A stretch of DNA of 61,329 nucleotides, counting the filler, from Asterionella formosa (taxonomy: Eukaryota), in NCBI GenBank assembly GCA_002256025.1. It is 7 parts of 7 records of this genome, joined end to end, with 100 filler letters (N's around TTAATTAATTAA, not from the genome) between each part and the next. Parts side by side here need not be neighbours in the genome. Positions count along the whole stretch, not along the records: positions 26,353 to 35,024 come from NKIB01011837.1; 6 more parts are not named here. One strand, 5' to 3'. The position numbers and the translations under genes are program-made. This document shows positions 9,258 to 58,065 of the stretch, in pieces. The notes under the pieces were generated by a model, which was not told where the DNA came from, ran no database searches, and was given only the letters and a program-made list of their open reading frames with translations. Each line of letters starts with the position of its first letter. The stretch's first letter is position 1.

Positions 9258-10152
9258 ATCGGGCATACATTACGTAAAATCAATCAATATGTGAACGATC
9301 TAATTTAACATTCTGGTCTCGTAAAAACAATACCAAGTCTACAGATAAAATTTTATAATGTGTTCAAAGTAAGTGTTAATGTTTAGCGTAAACCATGCAT
9401 GGTTGTTTTCAGTACCACGTACGTAGTATGTAGGCATTGTTAAGACCAAATAATCACATGCATAACCGGAGGAAAAACTTGCCGCCAACATCAGATGTAT
9501 TGCTATCATCGTTTGTCGGACGAAATATGGACGATGCAACTACATGGACGATGCGACTAAATGAATACCTCGAGAAGACAAGCAATCCAACAACCAACCG
9601 CACCCATTAGACAACAAATCGCTACTGGTGTCATCACTGAACTGATTTCGCTTCAAACCGGTCGTGATGGACGACGATCGACATGGTGAAAGGCTAATTG
9701 ACAGAGTCCACTCTTCAGGAGACAAACAAAAACGAGGTGAATTCTAGATATAAATTATTCAAATCTGTATATAAAGTGGTTTCTTTAAGTAGACCCTTGC
9801 CAATTTCGGCAATCCCAGGGCTGGAAAACCGAGGGGCAATTGGCGTCTATTGTCTTGCCAAAATGCGAACATATGAAATATACAAAATATATTTTAATGA
9901 TGGGTAATATCGGAACTTTGGGAATTTTCGAGGTGAAGACAGGAAATATATGAAATACACTTTGTATGATGGGCCATAGTAAGATAAAATTGACATTTAT
10001 GCTTTATTTGTGGGCAGTAGGTAAGCGAATGACGCGACGATAGTAGCTAGAGCGGGAATTGCCTCAACAATACCCTTCTCGGTGGCTACTTGCCTTCTCG
10101 TATACATGTGTACTCGCAGGCAAGAGACCACCTCGGGCGTGTATTGCCTTCA
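9258..10152 (+). mobile_element. CGAG-hairpin element, left-truncated copy with collapsed terminal hairpin
   Basis: Colinear with the reverse complement of 33661-34650; ends GTATTGCCTTCA; inner ~100 nt of the hairpin is missing. Confidence 0.85.
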
Positions 10153-10264
10153 GCAAAGCCGCAAGTTGCAGTACTACCTGGTACCGAAAATTATTGGGTG
10201 TTTGGTTCCACGTCGAGAAAAAAGTACAGGGGGGTCCAGGACAATGAAGTATACGGTAGTATAC

Positions 10265-10700
10265 TGAAGGTAAGACACGACCGAGGGTGGAGACTGACTG
10301 CGAGTATTCTTGTGTTCGAGGCTTGGGAGGCCCTCGCAGGTTGACCTTCTCGCAGCGCCGGGAAGCCGAGTACACAAGATTACGAGTAGGCAGACTCCTC
10401 CCGAGTAGGGTCTTACCTAGGCAATTCACAAACTAGCTATTGGCGCGCTTTTCGCCACTACATTGCCCTTTCAGTTAACATTGAAAACATATTTTGCATA
10501 GTTTGTATGTTGGATGCGAACTAGCCAATTGCCCTTCATCTAAATTATATATTGAAAATTTCATGTCTACAGTTTTTGGATTACTCAATCCTGCAATCGC
10601 CCATCATATAAAGCATATTTTGTATATTTCATATGCTCTGTTTTTTTGACTGCCAAGCTACCTTCAATATTTTCAATAGCCCCTAGATTCATGTAAAACC
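10265..10700 (-). mobile_element. Divergent subfamily copy of the CGAG-hairpin element (right end)
   Basis: Starts TGAAGG; hairpin 10270-10416 with three symmetric CGAG pairs; then GCAATTCACAAACTAGCTAT sub-TIR and GCCC(A/T)TCAT repeats as in other copies. Confidence 0.75.
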
Positions 10701-26252: not shown

Positions 26253-26352
26253 NNNNNNNNNNNNNNNNNNNNNNNNNNNNNNNNNNNNNNNNNNNNTTAA
26301 TTAATTAANNNNNNNNNNNNNNNNNNNNNNNNNNNNNNNNNNNNNNNNNNNN
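26253..26352. other. Artificial scaffold linker
   Basis: N run + TTAATTAATTAA + N run, 100 bp. Confidence 0.97.
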
Positions 26353-28140: not shown

Positions 28141-28160
28141 AAACACTTTCTTTTCTTCAG

Positions 28161-28268: not shown

Positions 28269-28804
28269 GGTGTACGTACAAGTTGAACAACAGTGAACAA
28301 TATAGATTTGGTTGTGCATTGACTTCTACTGACGATTCGATGCAAGTAGCTAGTATATGTGGCTGCAAGTAACCATTTGACAGGCAGAACAGATCGCTAT
28401 CACTTGCTCATCTTGCTCCTAACTAAATATAACTAAGTTCTGATAGAGAAAAGATGTTTTGGGTGAAATAAAATTTACCTTGGATGAATCATGTGGCCCA
28501 CGTCAGAAATATAAATATACTTACAGGTAATTTATTTTAAAGAACAAAACTATTTCACCAGATTTGAGATGCTCATATCTTTTCAGTTGAAGAAAAAATC
28601 GGCTGAAATGATATAACAGATCGAAATCAAGCTCGGTTACTAGGGCCTGCGATGATTCAAGCTAATGAATCAATCAGATTTGCATCAAATAGTTCAAAAA
28701 AGGCAAATACACTGTTTTGATTTGCTAGGTAATTCGATCATCATGACAACGTTGTGTGTTCCTGTATGTAGAATACGGAAATATCACCAAACAACCAAAT
28801 TGTA

Positions 28805-29035
28805 TCACAACTCGAAATGAGGAAACCGGAATAATGACTGCAACAAGGGATGAAAAGGCAACAGTAGCAGGAAGAACTCCAGTTGATGCGGAAACCGGAG
28901 CCAACACTGCAACAATGAATGAAAAGGCGTCAACAGACACAACTCCTGCAACAAGGTTTGAAAAGGCAACAGTAACAGGATGAACAACTCAAAATGCGGA
29001 AAGTGGAACAATGACTGCAGAGAGAATCGAAAATG
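28805..29035. repeat. Degenerate tandem repeat
   Basis: Recurrent ATG(A/C)GGAAA..GGA and CTGCAACAA....TGAAAAGGC blocks, three to four times. Confidence 0.6.
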
Positions 29036-29834
29036 CTAAATCAAGAATAAGGAAAATGACTGCAAGAATTACAGCAGGAACAAAGGAAAAGAACACAAGC
29101 AACAATAACACGAAAAACAGGATCATGTGACATGACTGACGAGAGAAAAAATGAAATTGTTTTTAACACTGCGGGAAAAAACAAACAAGATCGACGTTGG
29201 CGTAGTATTGAAATCATCGAATATCAGGGGTCAGAATTTCTTAGCCGAGAAAACATTCTTTTAAAGCTCAATTGCCCCAAATTGCCTTGAAATATTTATC
29301 CGGGACTCGAAAAAGATGACCGTGACTGTGTGGCATATTCACAAATCAAGCACTCGTATATAGATACTGCGATTTATCGCTGAGGAATGAAAAAAATCAG
29401 GAAACGAAATAAATAGCGTCGAATCAGCAGATTCACTAGTAAATTCTGCTGATCTTGATTTTTAACAGAACAACTTCCTGGAGCATCCCGGGTACGACAA
29501 ACAATTCATACATGCATTCGTTAAGATCCTTTCTGACATGAACACATCCGAATTTCAATACATTCTGAATACTTGCGTGGTGAACGAACTGATGCTTACA
29601 TACTGCGTACATAATTAATAGTATGGGGTAAATGGTAAATCAGGTAGTTAGTATGGAGTACCAGATAGAAAGGAGTACCGTAGAAGATTCTGTACATCCC
29701 GTCCTTCTCGTTCGCTGTTCGCAAATTCTACAAAGAGTGGAGATCGCTGACGTAATAGTCATTACCCAAATCAGTTCAATCCAACACATACCCACTAATT
29801 GACATTCTCTTCCTTCTACTTATAGAAGACACAA

Positions 29835-30938
29835 ATGCAAGTTCGTCAGGCGGAGAAGCAAAAAGCGATGACATCGAGTCTCGTCGATCGCGACGCAGAA
29901 ACTGCCGTTCCAAGAAATGACGCTGTCAAGCAGCAGTTGACTGACGTTGATGGGAATAGTTCTAGCTCCACATTGTCACTGGAGCCGACGTTGGGCTCTG
30001 ATTACTCGGAATGCGACGAACCGTTGGCCAAACGCAGCGAAGTGAAACAGGAAGAATCGTATGCTGTCGCTCCCAACGAAAGCGATCACAATACCTTGCA
30101 AAGAAAGGTCCTAAGTACGTCCTTTGGCCACGTCTATCCCGAGGAAGCCCGCTTGTTCAAGTCAGGTTCCACAGGCGATCTTTCCCGCCCAGTCGCGAGA
30201 GTCAAAATGTCACGCAGGATGTCAACTTCAGATCTTCCCACTCAGCAACAGGCCAACGTCAACTTTATCAAGAACCGCGGCATTTTGGTCGTCAAGACAC
30301 AAGCAGATTCACTGCACTTGGAGAAAAATGACTACACCTACAGAGAAATGCGCCGCTGGAGGCGCCAACATCTAACTGGACAAGGCGTCCAATTTGGAGT
30401 CTGCGAAATTAGAGAATACCCTGTTACGCTAGGCGACAATCCCGGGGGGAATTGGGGACCGCCTCTCACGCTGAGTTGGGACCACTACGGGACCTTTACC
30501 ATGCTCCTTGAAGAGTTCGAATCTCAACATCCACCTCGCCGAACCGGATCTCAAATGAATCTCCCTCGGTCGGTTCGCGAAGATATGCTGCGCAATGCCG
30601 GCTTTTCGCGGGGGGAGATCCGAGCGGGATCGAAGGAAGTGAATAAATCCAGAGGGCAGAGAAGGCGAACTAGAGAGTTACAACAGTTGACTGGACTGCA
30701 AGAACTGACGGAAAAGCTATCACGCGGCACTAGCAACGCTATTTTTCGACGTGGAAAGAAAAAGCAGGAGCGAACATACTTGCAGCATGCGATGGAGGTT
30801 CACCAAATGAAAGTGCAGCAGGAAGAATCAGAAGATGAACTAATTGACGAGCTGCATGTTTCAACCATTGGTGGAAACGAGGAGAATTCATCAGAGGATG
30901 ATGAGGAACATCCCCCATGGGATTTTCAACTTCGGTAA
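29835..30938 (+). CDS. Diatom-type hypothetical protein (VxF..IREY..GDNP..GPPLTLxW family)
   Basis: 367-aa ORF with GVQFGVCEIREYPVTLGDNPGGNWGPPLTLSWDH and VREDMLRNAGFSRGEI; coding-like GC content. Confidence 0.85.
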   Translation: MQVRQAEKQKAMTSSLVDRDAETAVPRNDAVKQQLTDVDGNSSSSTLSLEPTLGSDYSECDEPLAKRSEVKQEESYAVAPNESDHNTLQRKVLSTSFGHVYPEEARLFKSGSTGDLSRPVARVKMSRRMSTSDLPTQQQANVNFIKNRGILVVKTQADSLHLEKNDYTYREMRRWRRQHLTGQGVQFGVCEIREYPVTLGDNPGGNWGPPLTLSWDHYGTFTMLLEEFESQHPPRRTGSQMNLPRSVREDMLRNAGFSRGEIRAGSKEVNKSRGQRRRTRELQQLTGLQELTEKLSRGTSNAIFRRGKKKQERTYLQHAMEVHQMKVQQEESEDELIDELHVSTIGGNEENSSEDDEEHPPWDFQLR

Positions 30939-31599
30939 AGGACACTGAACAAACATTCTATTTCAGTGACAGTTGAATATTTGTATCATGATGACAATTT
31001 GTTTGCATGTAGTGCACATGACACCAAATATATAAGATGTCTTCTGGGGTGTTTCTAGCCTCTTTAATCACAAAGCAATAGCAATGAAGAATACCTATAT
31101 ACCTAGTGTTAGTGCAACTCTTGGAGTACACATCTTAGTATTTGCCCTAAAACAACACAGAGATGGCAGCTGGTTGTATGTGTGTACCCGCGCTGACATA
31201 TCGTGATTGTAGTGATCTATGTGAGCAGCACACTTTTGCCTTGATGGAGTGAATGACAACACAGCAGTCTGTTGCATTGGTACTACCAATGCTGATGGTA
31301 TGGGTCGTGTTTCTTGCATGGTTGCCATGGCTCACTATGCCTCTGAGTTGGTGTGGCAACCTTCTTCTGTCATGCTGAGAGATTCAGCTTGTTGATTTAT
31401 GACTCTGCAATTTACGATGACTTCGGGGCAGGAGGAACGGATTGGGACAATTATTTTGCGATTTTGATGGAAGATAGGATTTACTTTCAATTATTATAGC
31501 TAGCTGCCCTGCCTGGTAACAGGTACCCAGTAAGAATGGCAACGATCAAGTTTAAATGGATGTCCATCACTGTATAATGGTGTATACCGGCAGCTCTAC

Positions 31600-33650
31600 C
31601 GGTAGCCGCTTTGCCTAGGACTCCTGTTTACTACACAACTCTTTTGTGGTGGGCTAAGTAGACACCTAGTAGTGTAGGTGGTAACGCTGTTTGATGGTGG
31701 TAATGGCGGGTTTACTAGGGTTTCCGACACCTTTGCACCACCGTACACAGAGTCCATGGACTAGGTTTCCGCCCTATGGGCTATAGGCTAAACCGGGGTG
31801 GGGCTGCCGTTAGGGGGCGATTGGGTTGGGTAGGTCGACCAGGGCGTTGGGAACATCCTGGCCGGGAATGAGAGTGTAGGTGCCCCCCACAAGCATGTGG
31901 CGGGCAAGGTCTTGCATAACTGGCTGGGCCTGTAGGTGTAAGTACTGCAGTATTTCTTTAGATTGCCAGCGGCCAATTACTAAGCGAATGCGGTTGGTAT
32001 CAACATGCGCGCACAGTAGAGCCATAGCGCCGACCCCCGGAGTGATCAGGCACTCACATCAGAGGGAAGAAAACCTAAGGATGATCCGATGAGGGCTGCA
32101 GAGGCACAGAGTGCAACGGTGATATTGGTGGCCATAATGTACGTCCAGCGGTGATTGTGGTGGCGGCCATTGAGGAGGGGGGGGGGGGGGGGGGTGGGGG
32201 CGGGGGGGGGGGGAAAATAAAGGATTCGCTGCGCAATAGCCCGGACAGGGCAGGCATGCTGGTGTCCGCTGCACTGGTGACCGATAACTTCACCACGAAC
32301 GCCACTTTTTTGGTTGGTAAAGTGAGAGAGGCGAAAGTGGCAAGGGCGAGGTCAGCCAGGGGACACTGCAGATGTAGAAGGCGCTGGGTACCAATCCAGA
32401 GTTGAACGTCCTGGAGGCGAAAAAGGGAAAATTGGTGAATGTCCTCGGCATGGGGGAGACCTGTGTATTCACCGGACCGCATGAGAAAAAAATATCCTAT
32501 AAATGCCATATCTGAAGTGGCCTAACCGGTGGGGTTGGTAGTGGTCATGGCCTGTGTGTGGGCATGGAGGAGGAGCGGGAGTGGGATGGGTTTGACACGC
32601 GAGGGGGGCGAGTCAAGTTTTCCGTAGAATTTTTGTTGGCGAAGAAGACGGAAGTCTCCAAAGGGTTTAGATGAGGGTCTGGGGACCCCAAGCTGGAGTA
32701 CGTCTGCGCAATCTGACGCACGGCATCTTCCACTGTGCAAGACCGAACCTGTTGTCTGGAGGGGGAGATCTAGCCAGTCTTGTGCAGCCGGGATTTGTCG
32801 GCTCACTACCATGGCGGCATAACGGGGTGGTAAATATACGATACTTCGCACTGTAAAGTAGTCAGTATATTGACCATAAAGGGAGTTTCCAGCTGCATCA
32901 GACATGGGGCCCATGAAATCTCCCTTTTCATCAGAGTGCGGCTCCCAATTGGCTAGTGCTTCATCCATGATTGGGAGGGTGGGAGCATACACCGAACCTG
33001 CAACAGCAAATACCTCGGGAGCGATGTGCACCAAGGGTATCTGGTTTGCGGTGATGTCTCCAAGAATTCCGAATAGTTTGTTATCCCAAGGGGAGGATTC
33101 GGTGAAGGATCCCGGGTAGCGGAAGATACGATGCACACAGGCGATGTTTCCTGTGTCATTCACGCGAATGGCGACAGCGAAAGCTTGATGCGTGGCTGGT
33201 TTCACCGCCAATAACTATTCTGTTTGCCAATTTTGTGGCATTGAGCACCTCCGGACCCAAAGCGGAAGTGACCTCATAGATGCGGCGATAATCACCATCA
33301 AGGCAGTCGAAGTCCGGGTCTCGGAAACACATGGCGTAATCGCCCATAGACGTCATTTCACGAGTGGTGTGACACTCCAGTTCGATACGTGTAGGAGTCG
33401 ACTGTGAAGGAGGAATGCAGCTGCGCAGTGGCGAAGCAAATGGATGACAGGAAGTTTAATCTTTTTTCGGACGACCGTCTTGGTGTATTTCCGCGATGTT
33501 ATCCTTCCGTGGGCTCCTGAGCTTGCTTTCGTAGTCAGCACTGCTCGAGCCAGTCTTCCGTTTCAACAAGGTTGCTTTCGAAGTCAGCGGTTTTGATGAA
33601 ATAATGATTCTTTTTTCTTTTCAACTGCCGGAGGTTGAGGTGTGTGGTGC
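31600..33650 (-). mobile_element. Tyrosine-recombinase (DIRS-order) retrotransposon, degenerate internal-deletion derivative
   Basis: GC-rich island. Gag-like ORF1 fragments (~33350-32770) join directly to YR fragments: EDAVRQIAQTYSSLGSPDP, DSPPSRVKPIP, IGYFFLMRSGEYT, SA*SLR.GAMALL, GRWQS..LQYLHLQA. Stops and frameshifts; no RT/RNase H seen. Boundaries approximate. Confidence 0.75.
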
Positions 33651-33660
33651 TGGGGTGTGC

Positions 33661-35024
33661 TGAAGGCAATACACGCCCGAGGTGGTCTCTTGCCTGCGAG
33701 TATACATGTGTTCGAGGCTGGGTGGCGCGAGTAGGTTGACCGTACGAGTGGCGCCCCCGGCGCTGCGAGAAGGTCACCCTACGAGTGCCAACCCAGTCGA
33801 GTACAAATGAATACGAGAAGGCAAGTAGCCGCCGAGAAGGGTATTGTTGAAGCAATTCCCGCTATAGCTATCGTCGCGTCATTCGCTTATCTACTGCCCA
33901 CAAATTTAGCATAAATGTCAATTTTAGCCTACTATTGCCCATCATATAAAATATATTTTGTATATTTCCTATCTTCACCTCGAAAATTGCCAAAGGTCCC
34001 ATATTGCCCATCATTAAAATATATTGAATATAAATTATGTTCGTATGTTCGCAAGACAACAGACACCAATTGCCCCTCGGTTTTCCAGCCCTGGGATTGC
34101 CGAAATCGGCAAGGGGTCTACTTAAGGAAACCATTTTATAGACTATACAGATTCGAGTAATTTATATCTAGAATTCACCTCGTTTTTGTTCGTCTCCTGA
34201 AAAGTGGACTCCGGCAATTCACCTTTCACCATGCCAATCGTCGTCCATCATGACCGGTTTGAAGCGAAATCAGTTCCGCGATGACGCCAGTAGCGATTCT
34301 TTGCCTAACGGATGCGGTTGATTGTTGGATTGCTTGTCTTCTCGAGGTATTCATGTATTCGCATCGTCCATATTTCGTCGGACGCACGATGATATCGATA
34401 CATCTAATGTTGGTGGCAAGTTTTTGCTCCGGTCATGTATGTAATGATGCTTAACGGATATTCTACCGGTACCGGCAGTCATCTAGTCTACATACGTACG
34501 TGGTACTAAAAGCAACCATGCATGCTTTAACGCTTACTTTGAACACGTTATAATATTATCTCTGTAGACTCGGTATTATTTTTACGAGACCTGAAATGTT
34601 GAATTATATCGTTCACATATTCATTGATTTTACGTACCGTATGCCCGATTTCGTCCTCACAAATATAGTTCTCACTCTATCTTGCCTGCCTTTGCTCTAT
34701 TCGGGCTTGCAATAGGCAACGTTCGTCTTTCTTTTATCCCATCGTCTGCTGCTTGTTATGCTAGTTGAAGCGGATCGGTGAGTACAACAGTGAAATACTG
34801 AATGTGGATTGTAGATCGTATTTATCGGGCCGACTTTCCGATTTGATTGCTTCCGTGGTTTGTTTTGATCGCTTCCATCGTTGTTTGTTGTTACGCACTG
34901 TCGTTTTGTTTCGATTGTACATATCTACATGAGAACCAATGCATTTATCAATGACTACTCATTGAAGATGTGGTATTGTGCCGTTGTTGATCGTATTTGT
35001 TGATTTGTATAGTCGTTGACAATG
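33661..35024 (-). mobile_element. CGAG-hairpin element, right part with intact 180-nt terminal hairpin
   Basis: TGAAGG terminus, hairpin 33667-33846, sub-TIR 33852-33875; body shared with 9258-10152; 34632-35024 overlaps 52671-52932. Confidence 0.88.
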
Positions 35025-35124
35025 NNNNNNNNNNNNNNNNNNNNNNNNNNNNNNNNNNNNNNNNNNNNTTAATTAATTAANNNNNNNNNNNNNNNNNNNN
35101 NNNNNNNNNNNNNNNNNNNNNNNN
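35025..35124. other. Artificial scaffold linker
   Basis: N run + TTAATTAATTAA + N run, 100 bp. Confidence 0.97.
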
Positions 35125-35448
35125 AAGCAACTGTCCGCCACTTCATCACCTCCGCCCAATCCCCGAATAACTTTAGTTCTGACATCTTCAACTGTGACTT
35201 CAATTCCGTAGCGTGAGAGAAGAAAGAAAACGATGTCTTCGTCTGAAAGGTGGAAGGAAGGTATTAGAATGTAGCAATGCAACTCTGCAATGACAAGATG
35301 AGCATGCGAACAAAAGTTTGGTGTACGAACCGTTAATGGATCCGTTGGTTCGAATTCCACTCATATCTGTCTGACAGAGGGCAGAAATGTATTCTAGCTC
35401 CCGGACGTCTGCGTTCGCCCCTATGGGCCTTTGGAACCCAATTGTCAT
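35125..35448 (-). CDS. 5' part of a hypothetical protein gene, cut by linker
   Basis: Exon 35448-35331, GT-AG intron 35330-35243, exon from 35242, giving MTIGFQRPIGANADVRELEYISALCQTDMSGIRTNGSIN/DEDIVFFLLSRYGIEVTVEDVR in one frame. Confidence 0.75.
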
Positions 35449-36959
35449 CTTGATTGGTATTACTGATGCAACGAATGATCAGCTGACTAAAAAACAAAGC
35501 ACCGGTAGGTGGGTGTTAAAAATACTTTTACAATGAGCAGATTCATTTATCGACTCTTTTTTACACGACCCTCGCGATGTATTTCTCTACCTGGTACCTT
35601 GTACCAGCTGTTGGATGAAGTGAAGTGGCCCATGGGCGGATACAGATAAAATAATACGGACACCAGGACATGTACAAATTCTACATAGCACAAATGTATT
35701 ATCTCGCTCCGCAGGATATTCTGAACCACAGCAGAAAACAACACGACTTGAAGGAAATGGTCTGTGTGAGAAAGAAGGCTGCGCGTGCATCGTTTTCAAC
35801 GTCATTGTTGATATTGCTTTGAGTTCGGTACCAGGTACCTAATTAGTGACACCTGGTAGACTCCCGGTACCAGGTACCTGGTACATTGTCTAACATGCGA
35901 AACACCGGCCGTATCGGTATGTTGAAATAGCGCGCAGCAGTACTGCCCTAGAAATACCGGTCAAGATCTTTCTCACGCCTCTCGTCTGCAGATTCTTCTG
36001 ATATATAAATCCTGTCTATTTCCGTTTAGAAATTCCTCAGACTACGTAGTCTTCGAACACCTGTCGACATCAACAGCCTAACAAACACACTCTGACAGGC
36101 CTGACAGACAGACACACTCTGACACCCTCCCCTGTTGGAGGGTTGATGCTCGACATACCACATCATCCTAATCTGTGATAATGTGTATGCTCGACACATC
36201 CTATCCTACAGGAATTTTTTTTATATGTAGTCCTCTCTTTTTTCTTCGTCTCTGTTTTTCTGACGAATTGTATAATGCATGAAGAAAACAAGTGTGTGAA
36301 TTAAAAAAAATTGTACACAATATTTTTACATGAAGCGGTTGTGGCAGTGCACCTGCAATCATGATGATAGCAGCCAGCCATGCATGCAGTTGTGAATCAA
36401 TGGCTAAACACAAGGCCACTCAAGTTATCTTAGTACTAACACTACTTATACTACTAAACCACTTACTGTTCCACTTGCATGGAATTCTATACGGAGCGAA
36501 TTATCATACTGACATGGCTAACCCTATTCATGTTTTCTGCCTTGCATGCATTTTTTTCCTCTACAAATCCATGGGTTAACCCTATGACGATGTCTGGTTA
36601 GGGTACTGTGCCTAGGGCCAAACCTGCCAACTTTTATGAATCTACCCAGGAAATTTTAGTGGTCATGAACCCTCCTGCTGGTCAGCTACTAGTGGCCTAC
36701 CGGTATGTGCCTAACAAAAACCAGCCGAATGCTGAACAGATTGCACATGTGCAACAATACCAATGCTATTTTTATATATACATGACGAAACTTTGAATAT
36801 TTCTCATGTCAGTAATCACCTGGATATCATTTGTTTTTTACAGGACAATTATGGTCTGAATACCGCCTTTTTTGTAAATGCGGGATATTCCAATTGCATA
36901 GCAGAATTTGAATTCAATGCATCCCATGCATGATCTCACTGAATTATCATACCTACTCC

Positions 36960-37241
36960 TGAATGAATTAATATTTGTCATGTCAAACCTTTTCATAGGT
37001 GAAAGGTTTTCCCTTGGTGTGGGAGAGTGGGCAATCTCGCTCAACTACAGACATAGCTACCTATAGGGTTATGTTTACATAGATATATCAGAACTCTATC
37101 AGGAGAGAACTCGACTAACACCTTTTTGAATACTTTAGTGTCAACCTAGGAGATCGAGTTGCACACAGCAAGGATTAAATAATAAGCTCATATATTCCAC
37201 AAATACTACTACTTCTAGTTAGATACCGATACTTCACCTGC
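36960..37241 (+). mobile_element. Gypsy-like integrase tail + PPT + ~210-bp LTR
   Basis: E*INICHVKPFHR* then GGGAGAG PPT and TG start at 37028, ending ..ACTTCACCTGC; homologous to 51269-51545 (-). Confidence 0.75.
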
Positions 37242-37263
37242 AAGTTGCGTTCGTTTTGCATAA

Positions 37264-37983
37264 GGTTGCGGCCCCGCAATAACAAATTGCGAGGTCCGTT
37301 TTTTCCCAATTTTTTTTTTGATGTACCTCAATGCACACATCACGTACAAGTAATAATAATAGTTAAAGGTAAAGGTAAAATTAGCTTTCACCATTACGAC
37401 CACTTTGCATATGCTTAGATACTGTCATTACTCGACTTAGGGGTATGATCTATATACAGATACGGTAAGGACCCCATCTCTGGAGAGAAGTGGCAGTTAT
37501 GTATCATAGATTCGTAACTACCGCAAAACTAGTCGAAAAAAGGGGCTACGAAGCATTTCAAAAAATCTACGATATATGGCTGCCACTTCTCTCCAGAAGT
37601 TAACTCCTGACGTTATAGGGTACACGGCTGCTATCTATTTTAATCGTCATGAAACCCCGTAGATGTAGAGCAATCCTCTTCCAAAAAGTCGACCCGATCG
37701 GTTTTTTCAACAGTCGCTCGCCAAAATATTGGAATCGGAATTAGTACGTGCAAAAACGTCATCGTAGACTTAGAGTCTTGCGTAGGTATGTTTTGCTGAA
37801 TAATTCTCTGTCCGAAAAGACTCCAGGAAGGTCCGGTAATCAGCGAATTGCGCGCACTATATACTAAAAATTCCACATAGCGGTTTCAACATACCGGTAC
37901 TTCATTGGAAGTCTGTCCGGCTCAAAAATTCCGAAATGATGAAAATCTCAAATTATTTCAATTTATTTAGATTACCTGTAACC
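37264..37983 (-). mobile_element. Divergent member of the GGTTGC-ended TIR family
   Basis: TAA|GGTTGCGG terminus at 37264; 37430-37870 aligns in reverse with 39640-40055; internal ~34-bp inverted repeat 37480-37597. Far boundary uncertain. Confidence 0.6.
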
Positions 37984-38029
37984 GTTATAAACTTTCAAAC
38001 GGAAAAGCGCTGCCACTTTCACCGCAAAA

Positions 38030-38585
38030 TCGGTGACTACCAACTTCAATTTGCTGACTGCGGACTTCTTGTTGCTAACTGCTGACTTGATTTCCTGAAA
38101 ATTTGAAATATTCGCTGACTGCTGACATTCAGTCACTGACTGCTAACTTCAACATGCTGGTGCCAAACAAGCTACTTTGTACATAGGAAGAGACCGACTA
38201 CTGGTACCAGTGTACAAATCGTGTCTACTTTTCATATTAGAATAACAATGGAAACACATCATCTTTTTGTTGTTGGGATACTAAAAGCGATGCCTTCTAC
38301 ATTCATACAATGATGCTATTGGGAGTAACATAGACGTACCTGGTATCTGGTACTCCTTACATGATAATAAACTGTGAAATCGACATTGATGCCTAAAAAC
38401 ATTCATTGCTATCTCCTTCGTGATATTGCTACCACCATGTACTGGTACTATCATATAAATGCTGACTTCAACTTGCTAACTACTGACTGCTGACTTGATT
38501 CACTGAAAATTTGAAAAAATCGCTGACTGCTGACATGAAATCGCTGACTTCAGCAGTCAACTTACTGGCTGCTGACTAAAAGTTC
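38030..38585. repeat. TGCTGAC-rich repeat, two blocks (38030-38160, 38458-38585); third inverted copy at ~61015-61122
   Basis: Shared GCTGACTTGATT..CTGAAAATTTGAAA.A.TCGCTGACTGCTGACAT core. Confidence 0.7.
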
Positions 38586-38979
38586 ATTTTGACAATAAAA
38601 CGAGTGATGGCTTAACGTCTATGTAAACGGTTTATTTAAAGAATATCGGAGTGGCACAAAATTTAGGGGTTCGACAATTTTTGGGATATACCCCTTCCTT
38701 TTTCTCGTTGTTGACTCGATGAGCAGAAAACGAGCAACCTGCGCGCTATGTGCGCTGGTTACCGAATCTTCCAGGGCGCGTCACTGCACATATTCTGATT
38801 GGTTGAATTGAATTAACTCACCTGCTCCAGATCGGCTGCAGTAACAGGTATCTTTGCCTTGTAAAATTACAATTACGCCAGCCATATTTGAACCATATGT
38901 ATTAGATGTTCTGTACCGGTACCTGGTACCGGGAGGTAAAATATGGACTACCGGTAGTTTCATCATCCATCGTCATTAA

Positions 38980-40175
38980 GGTTGCTGGATTTGAAACCCT
39001 AGGCAAAAATTAAAATATTGCTTAGGGTTGGCAAAATTCCCTGGAATTAAGAATTTAATTAGCTATTATTGAATGACGTGATTCCATTTGAAGTATTTAA
39101 ATCAGTGGAAATTTGCGAATACGTACATAGATTCCTTGTCGAATTCGCTAAATATATATATATAGACGCTCTGAGTCGCTGGATGTATAACGGTATATGC
39201 GCTAAAAGTACGATCAACATGTATGCATGGACAGTCTATACCGGTACTCCGATTAACGAATTTATATGCTATGCATTGAATCCGTTCGACATATTCAAAT
39301 CGTTCAATATATATATACACATTTAGATTCTGCATCGCTTCATGTGCATACACCAGTACTACAATCTATACTCCGATCGACGACCATGGGTCATGTATAC
39401 GACCCTGCGGCTCGGCAAATATTTGGAAGTGCACTCAAGGAGCGGTCCGCGTATGTGCAATGATGATCATTTACTGGTTCCTGGTTCCCTGGTACCCGTC
39501 GAGAATATAGAAACGGACTGTCAGTACACCCAAGAAAATATTACATGTTTACAGTGTGGCCGGCGTGGGTTTGCAAGACCTCGCAAACCAGGCCGATCAA
39601 ACAGAGGAATGCAATTCACGTTCACCAATCATATTATATATGTGGAAGCGGGCACTTACAATGGAACTTTTTGGACAGGAGATTTTAGGACTAAAAATTT
39701 CGGCACACGACTACCGTTCCGATGATGACGTTTCGGCACTTAAAAATTCTGATTCCGATATTTTGGCGACCGTAGAAAAGGCCGATTTTGTCGAGTTTTT
39801 GGACGACGATAGCTAAACGTTGGCTGGGTCTGACGGCGATTTAGATATATAGGTAACTTTCAAATAGCATCAGTATTTAACTTCTGGCGAGAAACTGCAG
39901 AAAGGAATTTCGGTTTTTTTACTTTGCCAAATAAACAGATTTCCCCCGAATTTTCGAGTTTTTTTTAGCATAGTTTAAAAACCGAAGTTCCTTTCTGCAG
40001 TTTCTGACCAAATCCTATATACTGACGATACATAGAGTGAACCTACACCCCTATTTTGTCCGAAGACTGTATGTAAGCAAATGGAAATGATGTGTATTGG
40101 TGAAAGCTCCGTTGAGCGTTATACATATTTACCGGTAATTTGTATGTGAAAAGTATGTGTTTGATTAGTCTGACT
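38980..40175 (+). mobile_element. GGTTGC-ended TIR element, longer copy
   Basis: TTAA|GGTTGCTGGATTTGAAACCCTAGG left end; colinear with 6853-7452 plus extra segments ~39137-39553 and ~39889-40060, the latter containing a 29-bp inverted repeat. Confidence 0.78.
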
Positions 40176-40179
40176 TAAT

Positions 40180-47578: not shown

Positions 47579-47931
47579 TGGGGATCAAATCTAAGAACGT
47601 GAATGCTAACTGAACGCCCCCAAGCGTCCCTGAGAAAACTGGTACCAGGTACCTATGCTCGAAAGAAGACAGTACCAGGTACCCTGGTAGACACGATCGC
47701 ACGAAGTGATCCAGCGAACAAAATTGATTACCGGTACTTTATTATATGTGCATGTATATATATGAAAGGAGTGTGTGCTTGGTCCTCAGCAGGATCTTGT
47801 TTGTTCATTTTCGTTCACGTGCTGGCTGGCAGACCAACGGGCAAACTGAATGCTGGCTGTGCCTCTTATTTTTCCATTGTTCCCTGATATGCACACCGGT
47901 GCACCGGCATGTACATTAAGAATATGTATCA

Positions 47932-49157
47932 GCAATTCCTGCTCCAGCTTATCGTCTTGCCACTCGGGCACTTCTAAGTAAATTTTAGGCTCTAAGTAAT
48001 TTGTTATGTAATTTTTAAATAGGGGAAATATGGGGCACATCGAATTATTCCGCATTAATTAACATTGCAGATTTTAGCATGACAGCCAGAATAATGGTAA
48101 TATGCAGAGAAATGGTAAAACAAGTGTCAAACACACAAGAATGATTGTAGCATGCAAAATCAATGAAAATTGAACATGATGTTTGGAGCAACCAAGAAAG
48201 CATGATATGTAATGTATAATAAGTTGCTTCAAAATATAATTTATCATTAAGATAATGCCGACCCTACAGCAATAACATTATGATGTGTTCAAAGTACACG
48301 TTAAAGTTTAGCTTAAACCTTGCACAGTTGTTTTGAGTACCATTCATGTACTATATAGGCTATATGACTAGAATATCCGCCTGTTAGAGCACATAGTAAA
48401 TGACCGGAGCAAAAGCTTTCTGCCAACATCAGATACATTGCTATCATCATTTGTCTGCAGAAATATGGACAATTCGACTACATGAATCCCATGAGAAGAC
48501 AAGCAATCATCCAACAACCAACCGCATCCTTTTGACAACGAATCGCTAGCTACTGGCTGGTGTCATTTATAAATTCATTTCGCTTCAGACTGGTCATGAG
48601 GAACAACGATCAGCATGGTGAAAGGTGAATTGCCAGAGTCAGATTTCAGGCGACAAACAAAAATGAGGGGAATCCTTAATTTATTTTAAACAAATCTGTA
48701 GAATATATAAACATGTTTTCCTTAAGTAGACCCCTTGCCGATTTCGGCAATCCCACCAGGGCTGGAAAACCCATAAACTGTCTTGCCGAAATGTGTTAAT
48801 GATGGGCAAGAATATTGGACCTTGGCAAGATTTGATGAGAATATAGGAAAAATACAAAATTTATTTTATATGATGGGCTATAGCAACCTTAAAATGACAT
48901 TTACACTCAATGAGTGGGCAGCAGGCAAGCAAATGGCGCGATGATAGCTAGTTTGTGAATTGCCTCAACAATAACCTTCTCGGTGGCTACATGCCTTCTC
49001 ATTTACATGTGTACTTGGTTGGGATGGCACTTGTAGGTTGACCGTCTTGCAGCAGTGCTGGGAGCGCCACTCATACAGTCAACCTACTTGCGCCACCCAC
49101 CCTCAAACACATCAATACTCACAGGGATGAGACCACCTCGGACTTGTATTGCCTTCA
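47932..49157 (+). mobile_element. CGAG-hairpin element, copy with both ends (~1.23 kb, internally deleted)
   Basis: Left end GCAATTCCTGCTCCAGCTTATCGTC; sub-TIR ~48935-48963; decayed hairpin ~48969-49151; end GCCTTCA; no TSD. Confidence 0.85.
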
Positions 49158-51268
49158 GAACAAGCCGAGAATGACAGTATGCTCACCGGTAACTGGTACC
49201 AGTAACCAGGTACCTGGTACTTGTAGGTACATACAACGACAGCTCCTCCCATTGTGCGCATGCGCATGATTACAGGCAGGACATCAAGAAATCATTTTGC
49301 TTGACTGGCCATGACAGCATGGCAACTTTCAGATGTGTACTGCTATACGATTGCCTGCGTGAACACATAAAATTCCAAGGCTGAAAATTTTAACGCTTTC
49401 GAGCTGGCATGCCAATTCATTTTCTATAAATATGATCACTTTGGCAGATATAGCAAAATGGTTTTGATTTGGCAGATTAAGTAAACTTCACTCAAATCGA
49501 GTAATGACCCAAAGCAGGACAGGCATTTAAATAAATAGAAAACATCATCAATTAACTCTTCAAATTTTTCAGTGGTATGATCACCACTTATTGACTTACT
49601 AGGTTTTATGCTAAGTTTATTCTTCAAAAAGGGAAACTTGAAACATGATAGTGACCAGGGCAAGAATAGAGGGGCGTTCTGAAGCAATAGTAAGCAAAGT
49701 AAGAAACTCAAAATCATTCTCCTATCCTGGCCGAAGTGGCTGATGAAAGTAAACTATCTTAATTAACGGTTTCAAAGTCGTTGGGATTTTGGAAATTTAT
49801 AACTGCCAGCATCATCACCATACTAGCTAATACCCAACATAACTATTAACAGCGATGATGATTTTGTCACTGAAGAGGAAGATGAAATAGATAAATTATA
49901 GATAAATTTTTTTCAATTACCTCAAATAAGAAGAATAGTAGAAAAATCGCAAGAATCATCATCATCAAGGTCATTGAATTCTCATGTGAACAGGACAGCT
50001 GACGATGCGACAATGGCATTTTCTGCGGCATCGAATAACTTGATGAACTTACAAAACTGTTATTGCTGAGCAAGAGGAGCCGAAGGAAATTGAACGAGAG
50101 TTAGACTTTGTACTACTAGCTGAGGAAATCAAGGGCAAGAAGTATATTGATCCTTAGAATATAAGAAGAAAGAGGGAGCGAAGGTTTGCATTTATCAGTT
50201 ACATGAGCAATGGCTTGAATAAGAAACTGGGCGGAGCATTCAAATCATGTTCATTTGCGAGCTTCTGATGATACTCCTGAATCAATTGGTGACAACAGGG
50301 ATGACTATAATACTAGTGAAAGTGATCATGATAATAATTACTAAGATTTGAATCATATATTGATGATAAAAAAGCTATCATATGAGATAAAAATTGAGGT
50401 AATTCACTTCAATCGAGCTGTGCATGATTTTTGTTATTTATATTGCCATAATTTGCCCTGTTGGTGGTGCTGAAACCAGCAAGCACCTCAAAGATTGCCG
50501 AGGGCGCAACAATTGAGCTGCTTCAAGGACAATAGAGATCTTTTTCTGATAGGGTAATCATTGTGATCCATTATAGCTTCTGGAATTGGTATATTTATAG
50601 GCTCCTCCGAAAATCATACTTCATCCTGACGATGAATTTTATCGTCACATCCACCAATATTACTACATAGTATGGTTCTAGATCTTTCCACTCGAGTTTG
50701 GCTGCTGGCTCTAGTCCTTAATAATTTAATAGGTGCAAATACTTTTCTGTTTCTACTTGGTGTTGGTGATGCACATTTACCTTTTCTGTGTTGCCGAATT
50801 CTAATGGTATAACCATCGAGGTCAATCGATAGCACCAACACAGCAATGTAATTAATTCCGACTTTATCCATTTCATCAGGAGCAACTTGCAGGAAGCAAA
50901 GATGCATGGAAAGGAAACATTTAGTTTAGCTTATAATTTAGTTTGAGTTTAGATTATCAATCGAGGAAACAGTGTGTTAATTGACAGGAAGGTCAATTAC
51001 TTTATCTAGCAGGGACAAGGCTAGAAGCAGAGAAGAGAGATAAAGCAAGTGGTACTACTAGGTAGTACTACAAGCACGTAAGAGCCTACGTGAAGAGAGA
51101 TCCAGCCTGCAGGAAGAAGTACGGACCTTTTCAACATACCAGTACCATACGATGCATGCCCCTCCTACAAATTCTACATAGATAAATATTTTTGAGACAT
51201 GTGCTGACAGGTAATACAATGCCAGCACATTCCTCACAGAGGCAGGTTGTTTGATAAATACCAGGGTA

Positions 51269-52670: not shown

Positions 52671-53687
52671 ACGTACTGTATGCCCGATTTCGTCCTCACA
52701 AATATAGTTCTCACTCTATCTTGCCTGCCTTTGCTCTATTCGGGCTTGCAATAGGCAACGTTCGTCTTTCTTTGATCCCATCGTCTGCTGCTTGTTATGC
52801 TAGTTGAAGCGGATCGGTGAGTACAACAGTGAAATACTGAATGTGGATTGTAGATCGTATTTATCGACTTTCCGATTTTATTGCTTCCGTGGTATTGTGC
52901 CGTTGTTGATTTGTATAGTCATTGACAATGATGTCAATATTGCTGCCAAGCAATGCTTTTCTTGCACTAACGCGCTTTGCTACATTTCTACTACGAGTTT
53001 GTATCAGAAACTACAAGACGAATACTCAGCTAGAGAGAGTCAATAGTTCTGGAGCAGTGTGGCGATCACGCTTGCTCAGAATGGAATGATCAGGGTTGCT
53101 TGTTTGGTGGGCAGCGGAGAGGAATGACTGTGGCGGAAATACTGCTACTGGTGTCAAGCTACTACAGCGATGCGCATGGTTGCAGAAACCAGACCATTTA
53201 CGCTACATAACGATGTAGGTCAAGATTGGGTTTAGCTTTTCCCTTCTTATTTCGGTCTTCGATTGTGTGGTGATGGAAAGTCAATGTTGCCTGGTGTGTA
53301 AGTACTACAATGATTCACAATGCATTGCTACGTCTCCATTGGAACTCTTATTTTTTATTTTATTTCTAACCCAAAACAATTTTTTCTATTTCTCATTTGA
53401 TGCTACTTATTACATCGCATTTCATACTTTGGTTGCTCCCAACATCATGTTCAATTTTCGTTGATGTTGCATGTTACAATCATTCTCGTGTGTTTTACGT
53501 TTGTTGTACCATCTCCATGCATATTACCGTTATTTTGGTTGTCATGCTAAAATCGGCAATTTTATTGCCGAAAAATTCGATGTGCCCCATATTGCCCTTA
53601 CATAAAAATTACTTAAGAAATAACTTAGAGACTAAAAATTACTTAGAAGTACCCGAATGGCAAGACGATAGCTGGAGCGGGAATTGC
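52671..53687 (-). mobile_element. CGAG-hairpin element, left part of a long copy
   Basis: 52671-52932 nearly identical to 34632-35024; left terminus ..GACGATAGCTGGAGCGGGAATTGC at 53687. Confidence 0.82.
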
Positions 53688-54015
53688 TGAAGGAATCAAG
53701 ATTCCCTGGTCCCGCCTCAGTCATCATTGACTGCGTCAAAGTGGTCAGACATGCACAGCATTGAATTTTTAGTACTCTTGCTGCGTAGAATAAAATATTC
53801 TCGTAGATTTTTGTAATAAGTGTACCTTAGTTGCAAAGTGTGACTTACTACCTGTATTTGTGTTCCAAGTACCGGTACCCCGGTGAGGGAATGATTAGTT
53901 CGCACTGTTCTGACCAGGTGGGTGGGACTTAGATGTGACGCATGGCTCGTCTACTTAGTAAAGTGCTCATCTGCACTTATGTCCTCGTTTTCATTGCGTT
54001 ACGTCTCACCAACAA

Positions 54016-54597
54016 GCAATTCCCGCTCCAGATATCGTCTCGCCATTCGGGTACTTCTAAGTAATCGCTTAAGTAATTTTTATTTATGGTCAATAGAGTA
54101 TTTAAAATGGTTTCCATAATTATACCCCTTGCCGATTTCAGCAATCCCAGGGCTGGAAAACCGAGGGGCAATTGGCGTAAATTGTCATTCCAAAATGCGA
54201 ACATACGAAATATACCAAATTTTTTTTAATGATGGGCAATATCGGGCCTTTGGCAAGATTTTATGTGACAATAGGACATCTACAAATTTATTTTACCTGA
54301 TGGGCTATAGCAAGAAGCAAAAATGACATTTACGCTCAATGAGTGGGCAGTAGGTAAGCGAATGGCGCGATAATAGCTAGCTTCTTGTGAATTAGCTACC
54401 TCAAAAATACCCTTCTCGGTGGCTCCTACTTTTCTTCTCGTTTACATGTGTGCTCTGCTGCGATGGCAGCCATTCGTAGGGTGACCTTCTGACAGCGCTG
54501 GGGGCGCCACTCGAACGGTCAACCTACTTGTACCACCCAGGCTCGAACACATGTATACTCGCAGGCAAGAGACCACCTCGGGCTTGTCTTGCCTTCA
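54016..54597 (+). mobile_element. CGAG-hairpin element, minimal copy with both ends (~580 bp)
   Basis: GCAATTCCCGCTCCAGATATCGTC left end; hairpin ~54405-54591; end GCCTTCA; no TSD. Confidence 0.85.
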
Positions 54598-54684
54598 CCA
54601 ATTCACAACCTATTTCATAGCTATTCTCGTCTTGCTATTTACTTACCTATACTATCCTGCCCACCCACTGAGCATACCGGTAAC

Positions 54685-55205
54685 TATCATTTTTAGCTGG
54701 CTATTGCCCATCATATAAAATATTTTTTTGTATATTCTTATCTTCACATCGAAATTTGCAATATGGCCGATATTGCCCATCATTAAAAAATATTTTTTTG
54801 GACATTCGTATGTTAGTATTTTGGTAATACAATTTGCGACAAATTGCCCCCTGGTTTTTCATGCCTTGGATAGCCGAATATCGCAGTGGGACTTCTGGAA
54901 ACTATTTCATATACTCTACAGGTTTGATCAAAATGAATCTAGTACTATTCACCTCATTTTTGTCAGTCTCCTGAAAAGTGACTCTGCCAATTCACCTTTC
55001 ACCATGCCGATCATCATCCATCATGCCCAGTCTGAACTAAAATGATTTCATAAATGACACCAGTAACAATTCATTGTCAAATGGATGCGGCTTGTTTTTG
55101 GATTTCTTATCTTCTCATTGGATTCATGTAATCGAATCATACATGTTTCGTCAGATGAATGATGATTCTAGTATATCTGATGTTGGTAGCAAGTTTTTGA
55201 GCCAG
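54685..55205 (-). mobile_element. Internal fragment of the CGAG-hairpin element
   Basis: Aligns with ~33915-34435. Confidence 0.75.
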
Positions 55206-58065
55206 TCAGCCATGCATATGATCCCTCTGTTCCGGTATCATAGTTGCAACAAAACTTTAGGTCACTGCCTCTCATAAAGCATAACCTCCAATAACTCTCC
55301 GGCTAACAGCCCGTCCTTTCCAAAACTCGTGAGCGCTTGTATATAATTGTTTGTCTTAGATTATTCGATTTTTATATAAATAATATTTACTTTTTCAACA
55401 AATGCAACATTGAACTTTCAGGGGTTCTTGTCATCTATTAATTATACTACTCTGTTTCACGACCTACAGCCATGCATTCCCACGGCGATGTTCCTGCTTT
55501 AATCACCCTTGACCATTGTGCTTTCCTCCCATGCTGCTCCTCTCACTCCTGCTCCTCCTGATATTCCTACGGCTGACACTGTCTCCTTCACTCCTGCTTA
55601 TCCCCCATGGAAATCCTCTTACAAATCCTCCAAGTCTACATTTGCAACTTCGGTAAAAACTGGAAAGCCCCGCTTGGGTGCATAATCCCATTGATATGTA
55701 ATCTATTTACCCTATCTCGCCCCTCTGACCCTCCCACCACCACTCTTGACCCCCTTGACACACATGCACACCACTTGCCGCTTCGGCCCACAACAACAAA
55801 AAGCGCTCGTCTCATCTTATGTCTTACCATCACTACGGTTGTTTCCTATTCTGCAACCCTTAAGAGTCCCTCAATGAACTCGCCCTCACTCGTCATTCCT
55901 TTGGGGCCCATTTGGGCCCTAGTGGTCTCCATGAACTCCATATTTGAGTCTCAATAAAAGCGTACTTAAAATTTTCTTATTCTACTATATATATATATAT
56001 ATATATAATGTTTACCAGTAGAGCAATATGGAGTACTGTGAAGTCATGAGCAGCTGGAGAAAGCATGGTGCATCATGTTATCTCAGCCTCGACCATGATG
56101 AAAATAACGAATGTCTCAATAAAAATGAGAATGACGCTTTGCTATTGGGTCCATCTTTTAGGAACGATATAGAAAAAAAATAGTAAAAGAATAGTTTTAC
56201 AAACTCTAATGTTGACAACGAAAATTGAAATAACTGATAGCCCATTTTTAAATGAAATGTATAGAATCAACAATTCAAAACGACGATGCTATCAGCAGAT
56301 GTGACACTTTCACAGTAGCTAGCTGTACAACGATTGTTACAAAGACGACTAAAACAATAACATGATTAATTAAAGCAAGAAACGTGAAGAAAGTTATTTA
56401 TTAGTTTAGATTTGATTTCTTCTTATCACATAATCAAGTACGTCACGACTAAGTGGTGATCATGCATTCACACGATTTTAAAGAGAGAATCGATTACATT
56501 TTCCATGAACTTAAATGACTGTTCTGCGTCATGTCATCAATTTCAGCAAAATGACCACAACTTGCAGGTACTCACATTCGTTTAGCTGAAAATTCGATTT
56601 CACAAGAATTACAATTTTTGGAAGCGCGCGCTTGAATCATTCACAAACGGAGATAGTGAATCCTACCAGCACCAGTCACTGTCCCAGAAAAAAAATGAGT
56701 GGGAGAGGTAAAAAATACTCACCACCCGCTGACATTATAACAGCTGTCAAGTTGATACCTCACCATCAGCGATGATCTTACCAAACATTGGGAAAATAGC
56801 TTGCATTCGATCCCTGTCACTGCACTCTTCTGTTACATCGGCGATTCAAATGAAATAGTGGTATGTCTGTGAACGAAAAAAGTGGTAGGCCTAAGACTTT
56901 TGCTCTATTATCGACTTTGTCCCTGACAGCGGAAAAAAGTTGATGGGCTAGTAGGTTCTAATGATGCGACCATATATAACTCCACATTGACAGCAAAATT
57001 TCAATTTGACGTGCGTACCTTGTCCTCAGGTTGATTGATCTTCTTGTTCTATTTTTCTGTAGTAGACACTGATTGTGCTGACAAGTCAGAACCCGATAAT
57101 ACCGGTAGGCTTATATAGAGCAGTGAAACAACCATATTACTCACATGTGTTTGCAGCGATACTAGAAAGATTCAATTTCACAATCGTTTCTATAACAAAT
57201 CATTGTCAATATCCACTTTTTCTTTCAACAAGCTCAAATGAGAACTCATGTTTTATCATGTTGTGGCCCACAAGTAGGCTACTTTGCATCACATCATGAT
57301 CAATCGAGAACAACGCACAACGTTAGAATACATGAGCAAAAAACAGTGCTTCTGGGGCGACAAATACAACAAACAACAACAAACCACATTTGTTGACTTT
57401 TCAGTTCTTGAAATTACATCATTCACACTCCCGCCTCCTTCTTGCTCTCCACAACCAAAGATGCAGTGCATTTCAAATTTTGAATCAATCGCTTCTACCT
57501 AATGATTTACGAATTAATAATATTTATGTTTTGTTGAGTATCTACGTAACATTATCATTCATTTTCGTATATATGTATATATGTGTAGCTAACTTGCTTA
57601 TTCAAAAATTGGAAACCAATTATTTGCGTCAGATTAAATATCATTGACGATCACATCATGTTGACATCAAAATGAGGTGATGATGTTGTGAATCTCTGAT
57701 ATTTGTGTGATCATATACTTTAAAAGTGTGCGATCTAGAGTTTAAAGATTTTTCCAATCAAACAAATATTCTCTTTTATATTCTCGTACCATTAAATTAT
57801 TAAGTTAGATCAACAGAGTAGCTCCGTCCTGAGCTTAATCAATAACTCCGATCAAGTAGAAGAATTTTTCCGGTCACTGGGAAAATGTACTTCTGCACGT
57901 GGAAGTGACCACCCACCCAATTTTCCACCACCCCACCTTCTACAGGCCATGGAGCGCAATGACGATAAACCTAGAAATAGACTAGTAGAATGCGCTGTAA
58001 AAATGATTAATATATGAAAATATGTTCGGTCATACATAACGAAGGTTATATACATCTATGTATTC

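Follow-up and report, generated by a model that had tools for sequence, protein, structure and literature searches.

The stretch of Asterionella formosa DNA analysed here (the window) is 61329 bases long. It consists of 7 parts of about 8.7 kb, at 1-8696, 8797-17476, 17577-26252, 26353-35024, 35125-43799, 43900-52570 and 52671-61329, separated by spacers of the form N44-TTAATTAATTAA-N44 (8697-8796, 17477-17576, 26253-26352, 35025-35124, 43800-43899 and 52571-52670). DIRP, mitochondrial-carrier, RINGv and zf-MYND domains, recognized by Pfam in long open reading frames (ORFs), mark it as eukaryotic DNA, and the public sequencing runs with matches to it come mainly from freshwater, estuary and algal samples. 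The subject of this report is a long hairpin in the fourth part, broken at regular intervals by facing CGAG tetramers, that lies at one end of an abundant repeated element. Contigs of 4 public runs were mapped to positions 33300-35020, and one metagenome scan added 4 contigs, designated L001, L002, L003 and L004, which together with the window make 66.5 kb. The instance of the element that carries the hairpin of the fourth part is designated copy A, and its features are these:

33658..35024, + strand: copy A to the end of its segment, a high-copy repeat throughout, by depth in 4 of 4 runs
33658..33666, + strand: outer tip, TGCTGAAGG, where the family boundary lies, with the left side (TGAAG) of a sixth purine loop
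33667..33846, + strand: hairpin with five facing CGAG/CGAG loops and the apex GGCGCC-CCC-GGCGCT, seen by fold, covariation and covariance model
33852..33888, + strand: inner inverted repeat (subTIR), GCAATTCCCGC..CATTCG, directly inside the hairpin, aligning with reverse-complemented far tips
33912..34100, + strand: internal subrepeats with a 68-nucleotide (nt) step and ATTGCCC in each (repeat families D6, D10 and D11)

The hairpin is real, non-random and terminal, as the original prediction had it. Ten CGAG tetramers occur on the + strand exactly where that prediction placed them, at 33678, 33697, 33713, 33728, 33745, 33766, 33782, 33798, 33814 and 33833, and the region 33658-33851 has these ten CGAG and no CTCG. 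The window-wide rate gives an expectation of 0.42 CGAG per strand for this region (Poisson P about 3e-11), and local base composition gives 1.2 (P about 7e-7). In 20000 shuffles that preserved its dinucleotides, the count never rose above 7. The whole of the region forms a single hairpin of about 190 nt, with arms of about 90 nt each and loops about 16.5 nt apart, and its fold lies well below those of shuffles. With DNA parameters the + strand folds at -44.3 kcal/mol (z score -5.4) and the - strand at -36.8 (z -3.9); under RNA parameters they reach -104.6 and -76.8 kcal/mol.

At every one of the five loops of the predicted fold, a left CGAG stands opposite a right CGAG. The facing arrangement that had been claimed is thus present, but the loops are not clean 2x2 loops, because in four of the five another 1-3 letters stay unpaired toward the outside. 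A sixth purine loop, likewise symmetric, lies at the foot of the stem, where cTGAAG at 33661 is opposite tTGAAG at 33846. The facing mismatches of copy A comprise 11 of the G-A or A-G type, 4 G-T, 3 A-C and 1 T-C. The (5'-CGAG-3')2 motif adopts sheared G-A pairing in DNA. In RNA, too, such loops give sheared G-A pairs when C-G closes them, according to the part of PMC5900564 that deals with them. Because both arms carry CGAG, one strand would present tandem G-A pairs in a nearly unbroken rod and the other T-C bubbles, so that the duplex would never be a perfect 90-bp inverted repeat.

Pairing is maintained across an alignment of seven copies (A, L003, D, C, E, B and L002, the lettered ones from the window). 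Paired cells make up 92.7% of this alignment, against 31-43% when the partners are slid. Two-sided changes occur at 7 pairs, compared with 2.3 +/- 1.1 after shuffling, and none of 500 shuffles matched the observed count. Most of this signal comes from subfamily E, and it is support rather than proof, because the copies are related. The outer stems of subfamily E read GGTAAGAC/GTCTTACC where copy A has GGCAATAC/GTATTGTT, while E retains 6 CGAG. The stems of copy E are compensatory and its outer three CGAG/CGAG loops are retained; farther in it has a single arm, which is inverted (2 CTCG). Counts of CGAG and CTCG for the individual copies are 10/0 in A, 9/0 in L003, 6/0 in D, 2/0 in C, 6/2 in E, 4/0 in B and 4/0 in L002. 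In all three full copies compared with copy A, identity is higher in the hairpin than in the arm (84.0 vs 81.4, 87.6 vs 82.3 and 96.4 vs 89.0%). To judge from these comparisons, the hairpin fold appears to be under selection.

The two strands are not equivalent. With RNA parameters all seven copies fold better as the CGAG strand, and with DNA parameters 6 of 7 do, so the asymmetry that had been proposed stands. That the G-A strand would be the one at work, as was also claimed, is not settled, because analogy with Helitron2 puts CTCG/CTCG, with its T-C mismatches, on the polarity strand. A covariance model built on the copies, a check that the original prediction called for, gave copy A 257.6 bits on the + strand and 74.5 on the - strand. 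Run over the window and the four metagenome contigs, it found the seven known copies and two cut ones, and no further diverged hairpins.

The element has a sharp boundary at 33658. The tip of copy A that begins there is common to the seven aligned copies, and contigs from the 4 public runs break at this position, with dissimilar flanks. In run X1, where 83580 contigs fall on 33300-35020, 78 contigs have loose ends at 33658, and the agreement among their flanks is 0.36. The hairpin is thus near the element end as predicted; the distance of 6 nt given for it was not borne out, the boundary preceding CAATAC by 9 nt and CTGAAGG by 2 nt. Measured from 33658, the hairpin stands at 7-9 nt and the stem foot (GTATTG / CAATAC) at 7-10 nt. 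Across the public runs the repeat family is about 100-fold deeper than the flank. Summed depth in X1 is 0.9-3.4 million in element bins and 1.9-27 thousand in the left flank, and in X10 the element has a depth of 19-123 and the flank 0-3.6. High depth continues to 35020, at the segment end, in all four runs. One DNA contig follows the left flank of copy A up to 33659 and then departs, and a contig from an RNA run follows it up to 33663, 6 nt into the tip, before departing. To judge from their sequences, such contigs look like unoccupied sites that have 2-6 letters in common with the tip.

Recurrence of the hairpin at the places first named was confirmed, at 10062-10156 (copy B), 10264-10428 (copy E), 48965-49162 (copy C) and 54400-54600 (copy D). 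Together with the far half of an element in the seventh part, designated copy G, the further copies are as follows:

9258..10156, - strand: copy B, with a collapsed hairpin at 10062-10156 that has two CGAG pairs
10264..10640, + strand: copy E, of a diverged subfamily
47930..49162, - strand: copy C, with both ends, internally shortened, and a hairpin at 48965-49162
52671..53693, + strand: copy G, with the end ...GCGGGAATTGCTGAAGG
54012..54600, - strand: D-left, a short derivative with a far tip, an arm of about 310 nt and a hairpin at 54400-54600
54600..55208, + strand: D-right, an arm that lacks its own hairpin

The collapsed form of copy B, with arms of about 45 nt, occurs with the same collapse in metagenome locus L002, which suggests that a length of about 95 nt is enough. 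The hairpin of L003 is full, and those of L001 and L004 are interrupted by contig ends. In copy C, 8 of the 10 CGAG have become TGAG or CAAG, with the GAG/AAG part kept; on this sequence evidence the loss appears to be CpG decay in an old copy. The same CG to TG or CA losses suggest cytosine methylation of silent copies in this organism. D-left is a derivative of about 590 nt with both ends, and the tip of its hairpin abuts the arm of another copy. D-left and D-right together make an 825-nt palindrome (self-match 54094-54918, 67.5%). Both D and L004 place a hairpin tip against an arm (..GTATTGCCTTCAG|CAATTC..), producing arm-hairpin-arm palindromes. Copies B and E, of separate subfamilies, stand tip to tip, 108 nt apart (10156-10264), with GGTACC between them. 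Beside the D palindrome, two family ends of the far-tip type, at 53638-53688 and 54015-54065, face each other with 96% identity across 326 nt of unrelated DNA. From these arrangements, family copies seem to land beside or within each other's tips. The 318 nt between the two tips (53694-54011) were considered as a variant hairpin and rejected, since they give a branched fold and no rod (z -2.9).

The far end of the element was read from copy G, from copy C and from a fragment, F. The sequence runs ...GCGGGAATTGCTGAAGG to 53693 in G, and in C it begins CAGCAATTCCTGC... at 47930. Far tips of all three align in reverse with the starts of the arms over about 37 nt; the subTIR of copy A, in particular, aligns in reverse complement with 53650-53693 and 47930-47975. 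The inverted repeat GCAATTCCCGC begins between 2 nt (after CA) and 7 nt from the far-tip boundary in G and C, and F is similar. At the hairpin end the order ..GCGGGAATTGC, then 5 nt, then hairpin is the same in A, B, C, L002 and L003. The outermost letters of the two ends repeat in direct rather than inverted orientation: A starts and G finishes with TGCTGA(AGG), and the ends of C are TTCTGA and TGCTGA. The full direct repeat, TGCTGAAGG at the left tip of A and the right tip of G, is found in one of three far tips, C having TGCTGATAC and F TGCTTGTTGG. The tail of copy A (34632-35024) matches 52671-52930 at 96%, and because it thus overlaps the start of copy G, a composite element of about 2.0-2.1 kb can be proposed, from these two copies only. 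The element contains no ORF of at least 150 amino acids (aa).

The original prediction knew of no transposable element end like this one. In layout, one has been described. Bao and Jurka described Helitron2 with an inverted repeat at one tip whose partner is set back upstream of a terminal palindrome (in the part of PMC3627910 on Helitron2 structure), and Thomas and co-workers described Helentrons and their HINE/DINE-1 derivatives with such a layout, as well as a proto-Helentron in an oomycete (in the corresponding part of PMC4067079). To the extent that these accounts set out the ends, the likeness includes an inverted repeat near one tip (0-4 nt from it in theirs, 2-7 nt in the three tips here), a partner repeat directly upstream of the palindrome (here in A, B, C, L002 and L003), a palindrome near the other tip (8-35 nt in theirs, 7-10 nt here) that is kept by compensatory changes, internal tandem repeats, lack of coding capacity, and very high copy number. 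The differences lie in the arms, which are about 90 nt here against stems of 5-10 bp there and 16-20 nt in canonical Helitrons; in the inverted repeat, about 37 nt here against 8-15 in those accounts; in the five or six periodic dyad-symmetric loops found here; and in the lack of the 5' hairpin of Helitron2 at the three far tips of this element. What is new is the size of the palindrome and its periodic symmetric loops; the layout itself is known. Literature searched outside Repbase and Dfam yielded no element end with a long palindrome broken by symmetric tandem mismatches.

Replitrons, the HUH Y1 transposons of algae and non-seed plants, also present in stramenopiles and moving by copy-and-paste, offer a second comparison (this and what follows according to the relevant parts of PMC10288648). 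They have short direct repeats at or near their termini, TAAAGG in Replitron-1 against TGAAGG in copies A and G, and subterminal short repeats of the CAATT type. In contrast, the only palindrome described for them in those parts is one of 11 bp, their stramenopile consensus sequences are all incomplete at the ends (Datasets S1 and S4), and the full direct repeat appears in just one of the three far tips of our element. The Replitron Rep motifs (ERG..HxQ and HxQ..GYxxK) gave no match in six frames of the window and L001-L004, 66.5 kb only. A link to Dataset S4 was tried and rejected, since 7-8-mers of the element occur there at about chance frequency.

Directly visible in the data are the anatomy, copy number, sharp boundary, selection on pairing, presence of one tetramer on both arms, and strand asymmetry. 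Tentatively, we favor the reading that the hairpin is an outsize end palindrome, which a HUH-type transposase encoded elsewhere would read in folded, single-stranded form. The element would then be an abundant, non-coding one of about 2 kb, built like the non-autonomous relatives of Helitron2 and the Helentrons (HINE/DINE-1 type). Along the strand that has the hairpin last, the proposed order would run from one tip to the inverted repeat of about 37 nt, 2-7 nt in, through a body with the 68-nt subrepeats to the partner inverted repeat, the 190-nt palindrome and, after about 10 nt, the other tip (..CCTTCAGCAA). The palindrome would act when the DNA is single-stranded, as an end signal known to the transposase by its shape, and the five or six dyad-symmetric loops, about 16.5 nt apart, would be contact points for the enzyme. 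The broken inverted repeat may in addition guard the duplex against the instability of long palindromes. Recognition of hairpins by HUH enzymes is described in part of PMC10288648. The proposal of a mobile element that works through a single strand has support in the layout of the whole element, which fits rolling-circle (HUH) elements better than cut-and-paste ones; its transposase was not found.

Several results weigh against this reading. A check for HUH, Y1, tyrosine recombinase (YR) or TnpB/Fanzor genes owned by the element found none. Pfam, run on 10 of the 21 ORFs of at least 150 aa, detected neither Rep nor RepHel nor any other transposase, and scanning six frames of the window and the metagenome contigs for motifs turned up none either. 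The Helitron2-type 5' hairpin is missing, the three far tips scoring z 0.14, -0.32 and 0.52 against shuffles. Helitron2 and the HINE elements insert between T and T with no target-site duplication; among the few ends available here, neither such a T|T target nor T strings at the tips stand out. With tips placed approximately, T ends two of three far-tip flanks, and if ..CAGCAA is the tip, the next letter is T in 3 of 7 sequenced tails and in 3 of 4 consensus flanks from the runs. The palindrome is some ten times as long as those in the accounts of PMC3627910 and PMC4067079 that cover such ends. The transferred strand derived by analogy would have the T-C mismatches (CTCG/CTCG), and the better fold is on its complement. 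Finally, both boundaries have a direct repeat of 6-7 nt (TCAGCA/TGCTGA), which, along with the contig that reaches 33663, suits site-specific recombination equally well.

That last point leads to a rival we consider unlikely, though less so than the other alternatives, a tyrosine-recombinase system of Crypton-like type, in which a circular copy recombines at a short core, TCAGCAA, and the adjoining hairpin is a folded-strand recombination site like attC or attP. The TGCTGA(AGG) shared by the left tip of A and the right tip of G, the TTCTGA and TGCTGA ends of C, the TCACCAA on both sides of D-left, and the RNA-run contig along the left flank of A to 33663 are all in its favor, as is the join of tip to tip, which gives ATTGC-CTTCA-GCAAT, inverted arms around an asymmetric spacer. 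There is even a Crypton-type look-alike ORF (protein atlas scores 0.93-0.95) 440 nt from the tip of A. But this ORF (33214-32075, - strand), the sole YR-like one, lies outside the boundary at 33658, has an in-frame stop, receives no call from Pfam, and sits in a flank about 100-fold shallower than the element, and no relative of it occurs near the other 7 hairpin tips. Full GAAGG is present in one of three far tips only, and Cryptons lack inverted repeats and hairpins as characterized in part of PMC3627910, while the element has an inverted repeat of about 37 nt. We think it unlikely that the element stands for an undescribed eukaryotic lineage in which a HUH enzyme or a tyrosine recombinase reads the folded strand through periodic, dyad-symmetric non-Watson-Crick loops, a eukaryotic counterpart of attC- or CTX-type sites with strand choice by tandem G-A against T-C. 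Integron attC sites and the attP(+) of CTX phage are imperfect palindromes at the end of a mobile unit, active only as one folded strand, with strand choice by non-Watson-Crick features and a short core repeated at both junctions. They are bacterial, are read by tyrosine recombinases, measure 57-150 nt, and have their strand marked by single extrahelical bases. The hairpin here differs in its periodic tandem mismatches.

A reading at the level of RNA, which we hold to be decidedly unlikely, would have the CGAG strand transcribed into a rod with tandem sheared G-A loops, to which a protein would bind (in export, packaging or silencing) or from which small RNAs would be made. The strands do differ by 28 kcal/mol with RNA parameters (-104.6 vs -76.8), with 8 G-U pairs in the + fold and 2 in the -, the C-G-closed (5'-CGAG-3')2 loops give sheared G-A in RNA (again from part of PMC5900564), and contigs of RNA libraries X15 and X17 contain the element. 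Such a transcript would have to begin in the flank where the element landed, because the hairpin is at the very tip, and no Rfam family matched the window at gathering score, lax filters over 33500-34000 giving only chance-level matches, at E 0.63 and E 3, far short of that score. In RNA run X15 the element exceeds its flank in depth by about the same factor as in DNA run X1, as expected from carried-over DNA or unspecific transcription; because the contigs show no strand, ends or level and the ratios match DNA, coverage in RNA runs says nothing on transcription. More doubtful still is a DDE transposon of foldback type, its hairpin an inverted duplication of subterminal transposase sites read as duplex, with CGAG as an oriented motif. 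The ATTGCC/GGCAAT repeats and the inverted repeat of about 37 nt near both ends would suit it, as would the head-to-head palindromic arrangements in D and L004, and the relevant part of PMC3310237 reports both duplicated inverted repeats in Mutator-like elements and, for Foldback and Mutator-like elements, long inverted sequences at the end and head-to-head palindromic copies. Those elements have long true inverted repeats at both ends, whereas here one end alone has the palindrome and loops break the inversion in one fixed way; the far tips of G and C showed no hairpin and no long repeat. No variable target-site duplication was seen, and the outermost letters of the ends run in the same direction. 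Inverted duplication would yield CTCG against CGAG; reverting all five would take ten specific changes, and E, with altered stems, keeps them. Highly improbable, finally, is the relic of a linear replicon with hairpin ends, replicating by a parvovirus-like rolling hairpin, with D-type copies as unresolved dimer junctions. The imperfect terminal palindrome with purine bubbles resembles one, and so do the arm-hairpin-arm palindromes of D and perhaps L004. The other end has no hairpin, however; the hairpin is oriented one way to the arm in 7 junctions and the other way in 2 (D-right and L004), loose ends before 33658 are not mainly arm sequence and their flanks are diverse, the copies are non-coding, dispersed and number in the thousands, and two scans of viral contigs, with the hairpin pattern and with the inverted-repeat pattern, gave 0 matches.

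The YR-like ORF near copy A belongs to an ORF pair at 33214-32046 (- strand), which is broken up by the one in-frame stop (32522-32524) and by a shift of frame near a run of G/C (32177-32213). Its C-terminal part is like eukaryotic Crypton-type tyrosine recombinases in the protein atlas, and a 3.5-kb contig from a polyA RNA library spans its upstream flank. Elsewhere in the window, a long intron-less ORF at 13430-16534 (+ strand) encodes a 1034-aa protein with the DIRP domain, and two more intron-less ORFs, at 22144-24120 (- strand, 658 aa) and 29826-30938 (+ strand, 370 aa), belong to no Pfam family.

The motif GGTACC occurs 46 times in the window against 5.9 expected, often as (AGGTACC)n, for example at 1477-1523, 4498-4517, 12873-12898, 35827-35878 and 49195-49214. 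Four of 7 copies (B, C, L003 and L001) have it no more than 60 nt beyond the hairpin tip, on the outer side, as against 3.4% of random positions (P about 4e-5), which may reflect a preference for such targets or a general property of intergenic DNA. Tails shared past the hairpin tip were considered as read-through and rejected, GGTACC being the only significant similarity among them. An insertion of about 172 nt at 39889-40061 (compared with 7349), with inverted ends of about 28 nt, distinguishes one of two paralogous stretches (6853-7453 and 38991-40179) that are 92-94% identical. It looks like a miniature inverted-repeat transposable element (MITE) unrelated to the hairpin family, and the local palindromes at 39865-40030 and 37460-37616 were likewise set aside as unrelated. 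Two ordinary N gaps lie at 11262-11598 and 19349-19784, and repeat tools list the runs of N as tandem and inverted repeats of 8 nt.

We conclude that the feature is genuine, under selection and out of the ordinary, and that it is best filed as a variant of a rolling-circle-type element end. How rolling-circle and other single-strand transposases recognize the ends of their elements is poorly understood, and the known palindromes, of 10-20 nt, reveal little about it. A family of thousands of copies with a 190-nt end palindrome is a readable record of selection: covarying stems, five or six loops of the same tetramer about 16.5 nt apart, and a natural minimal version of about 95 nt. The hairpin offers a direct handle for tests of binding, melting and transposition and for the question of which strand is the substrate. 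In annotation, such ends might pass for MITEs or for microRNA precursors. The family also shows how a long palindrome may persist in a genome, through regular mismatches that are stable on one strand only.

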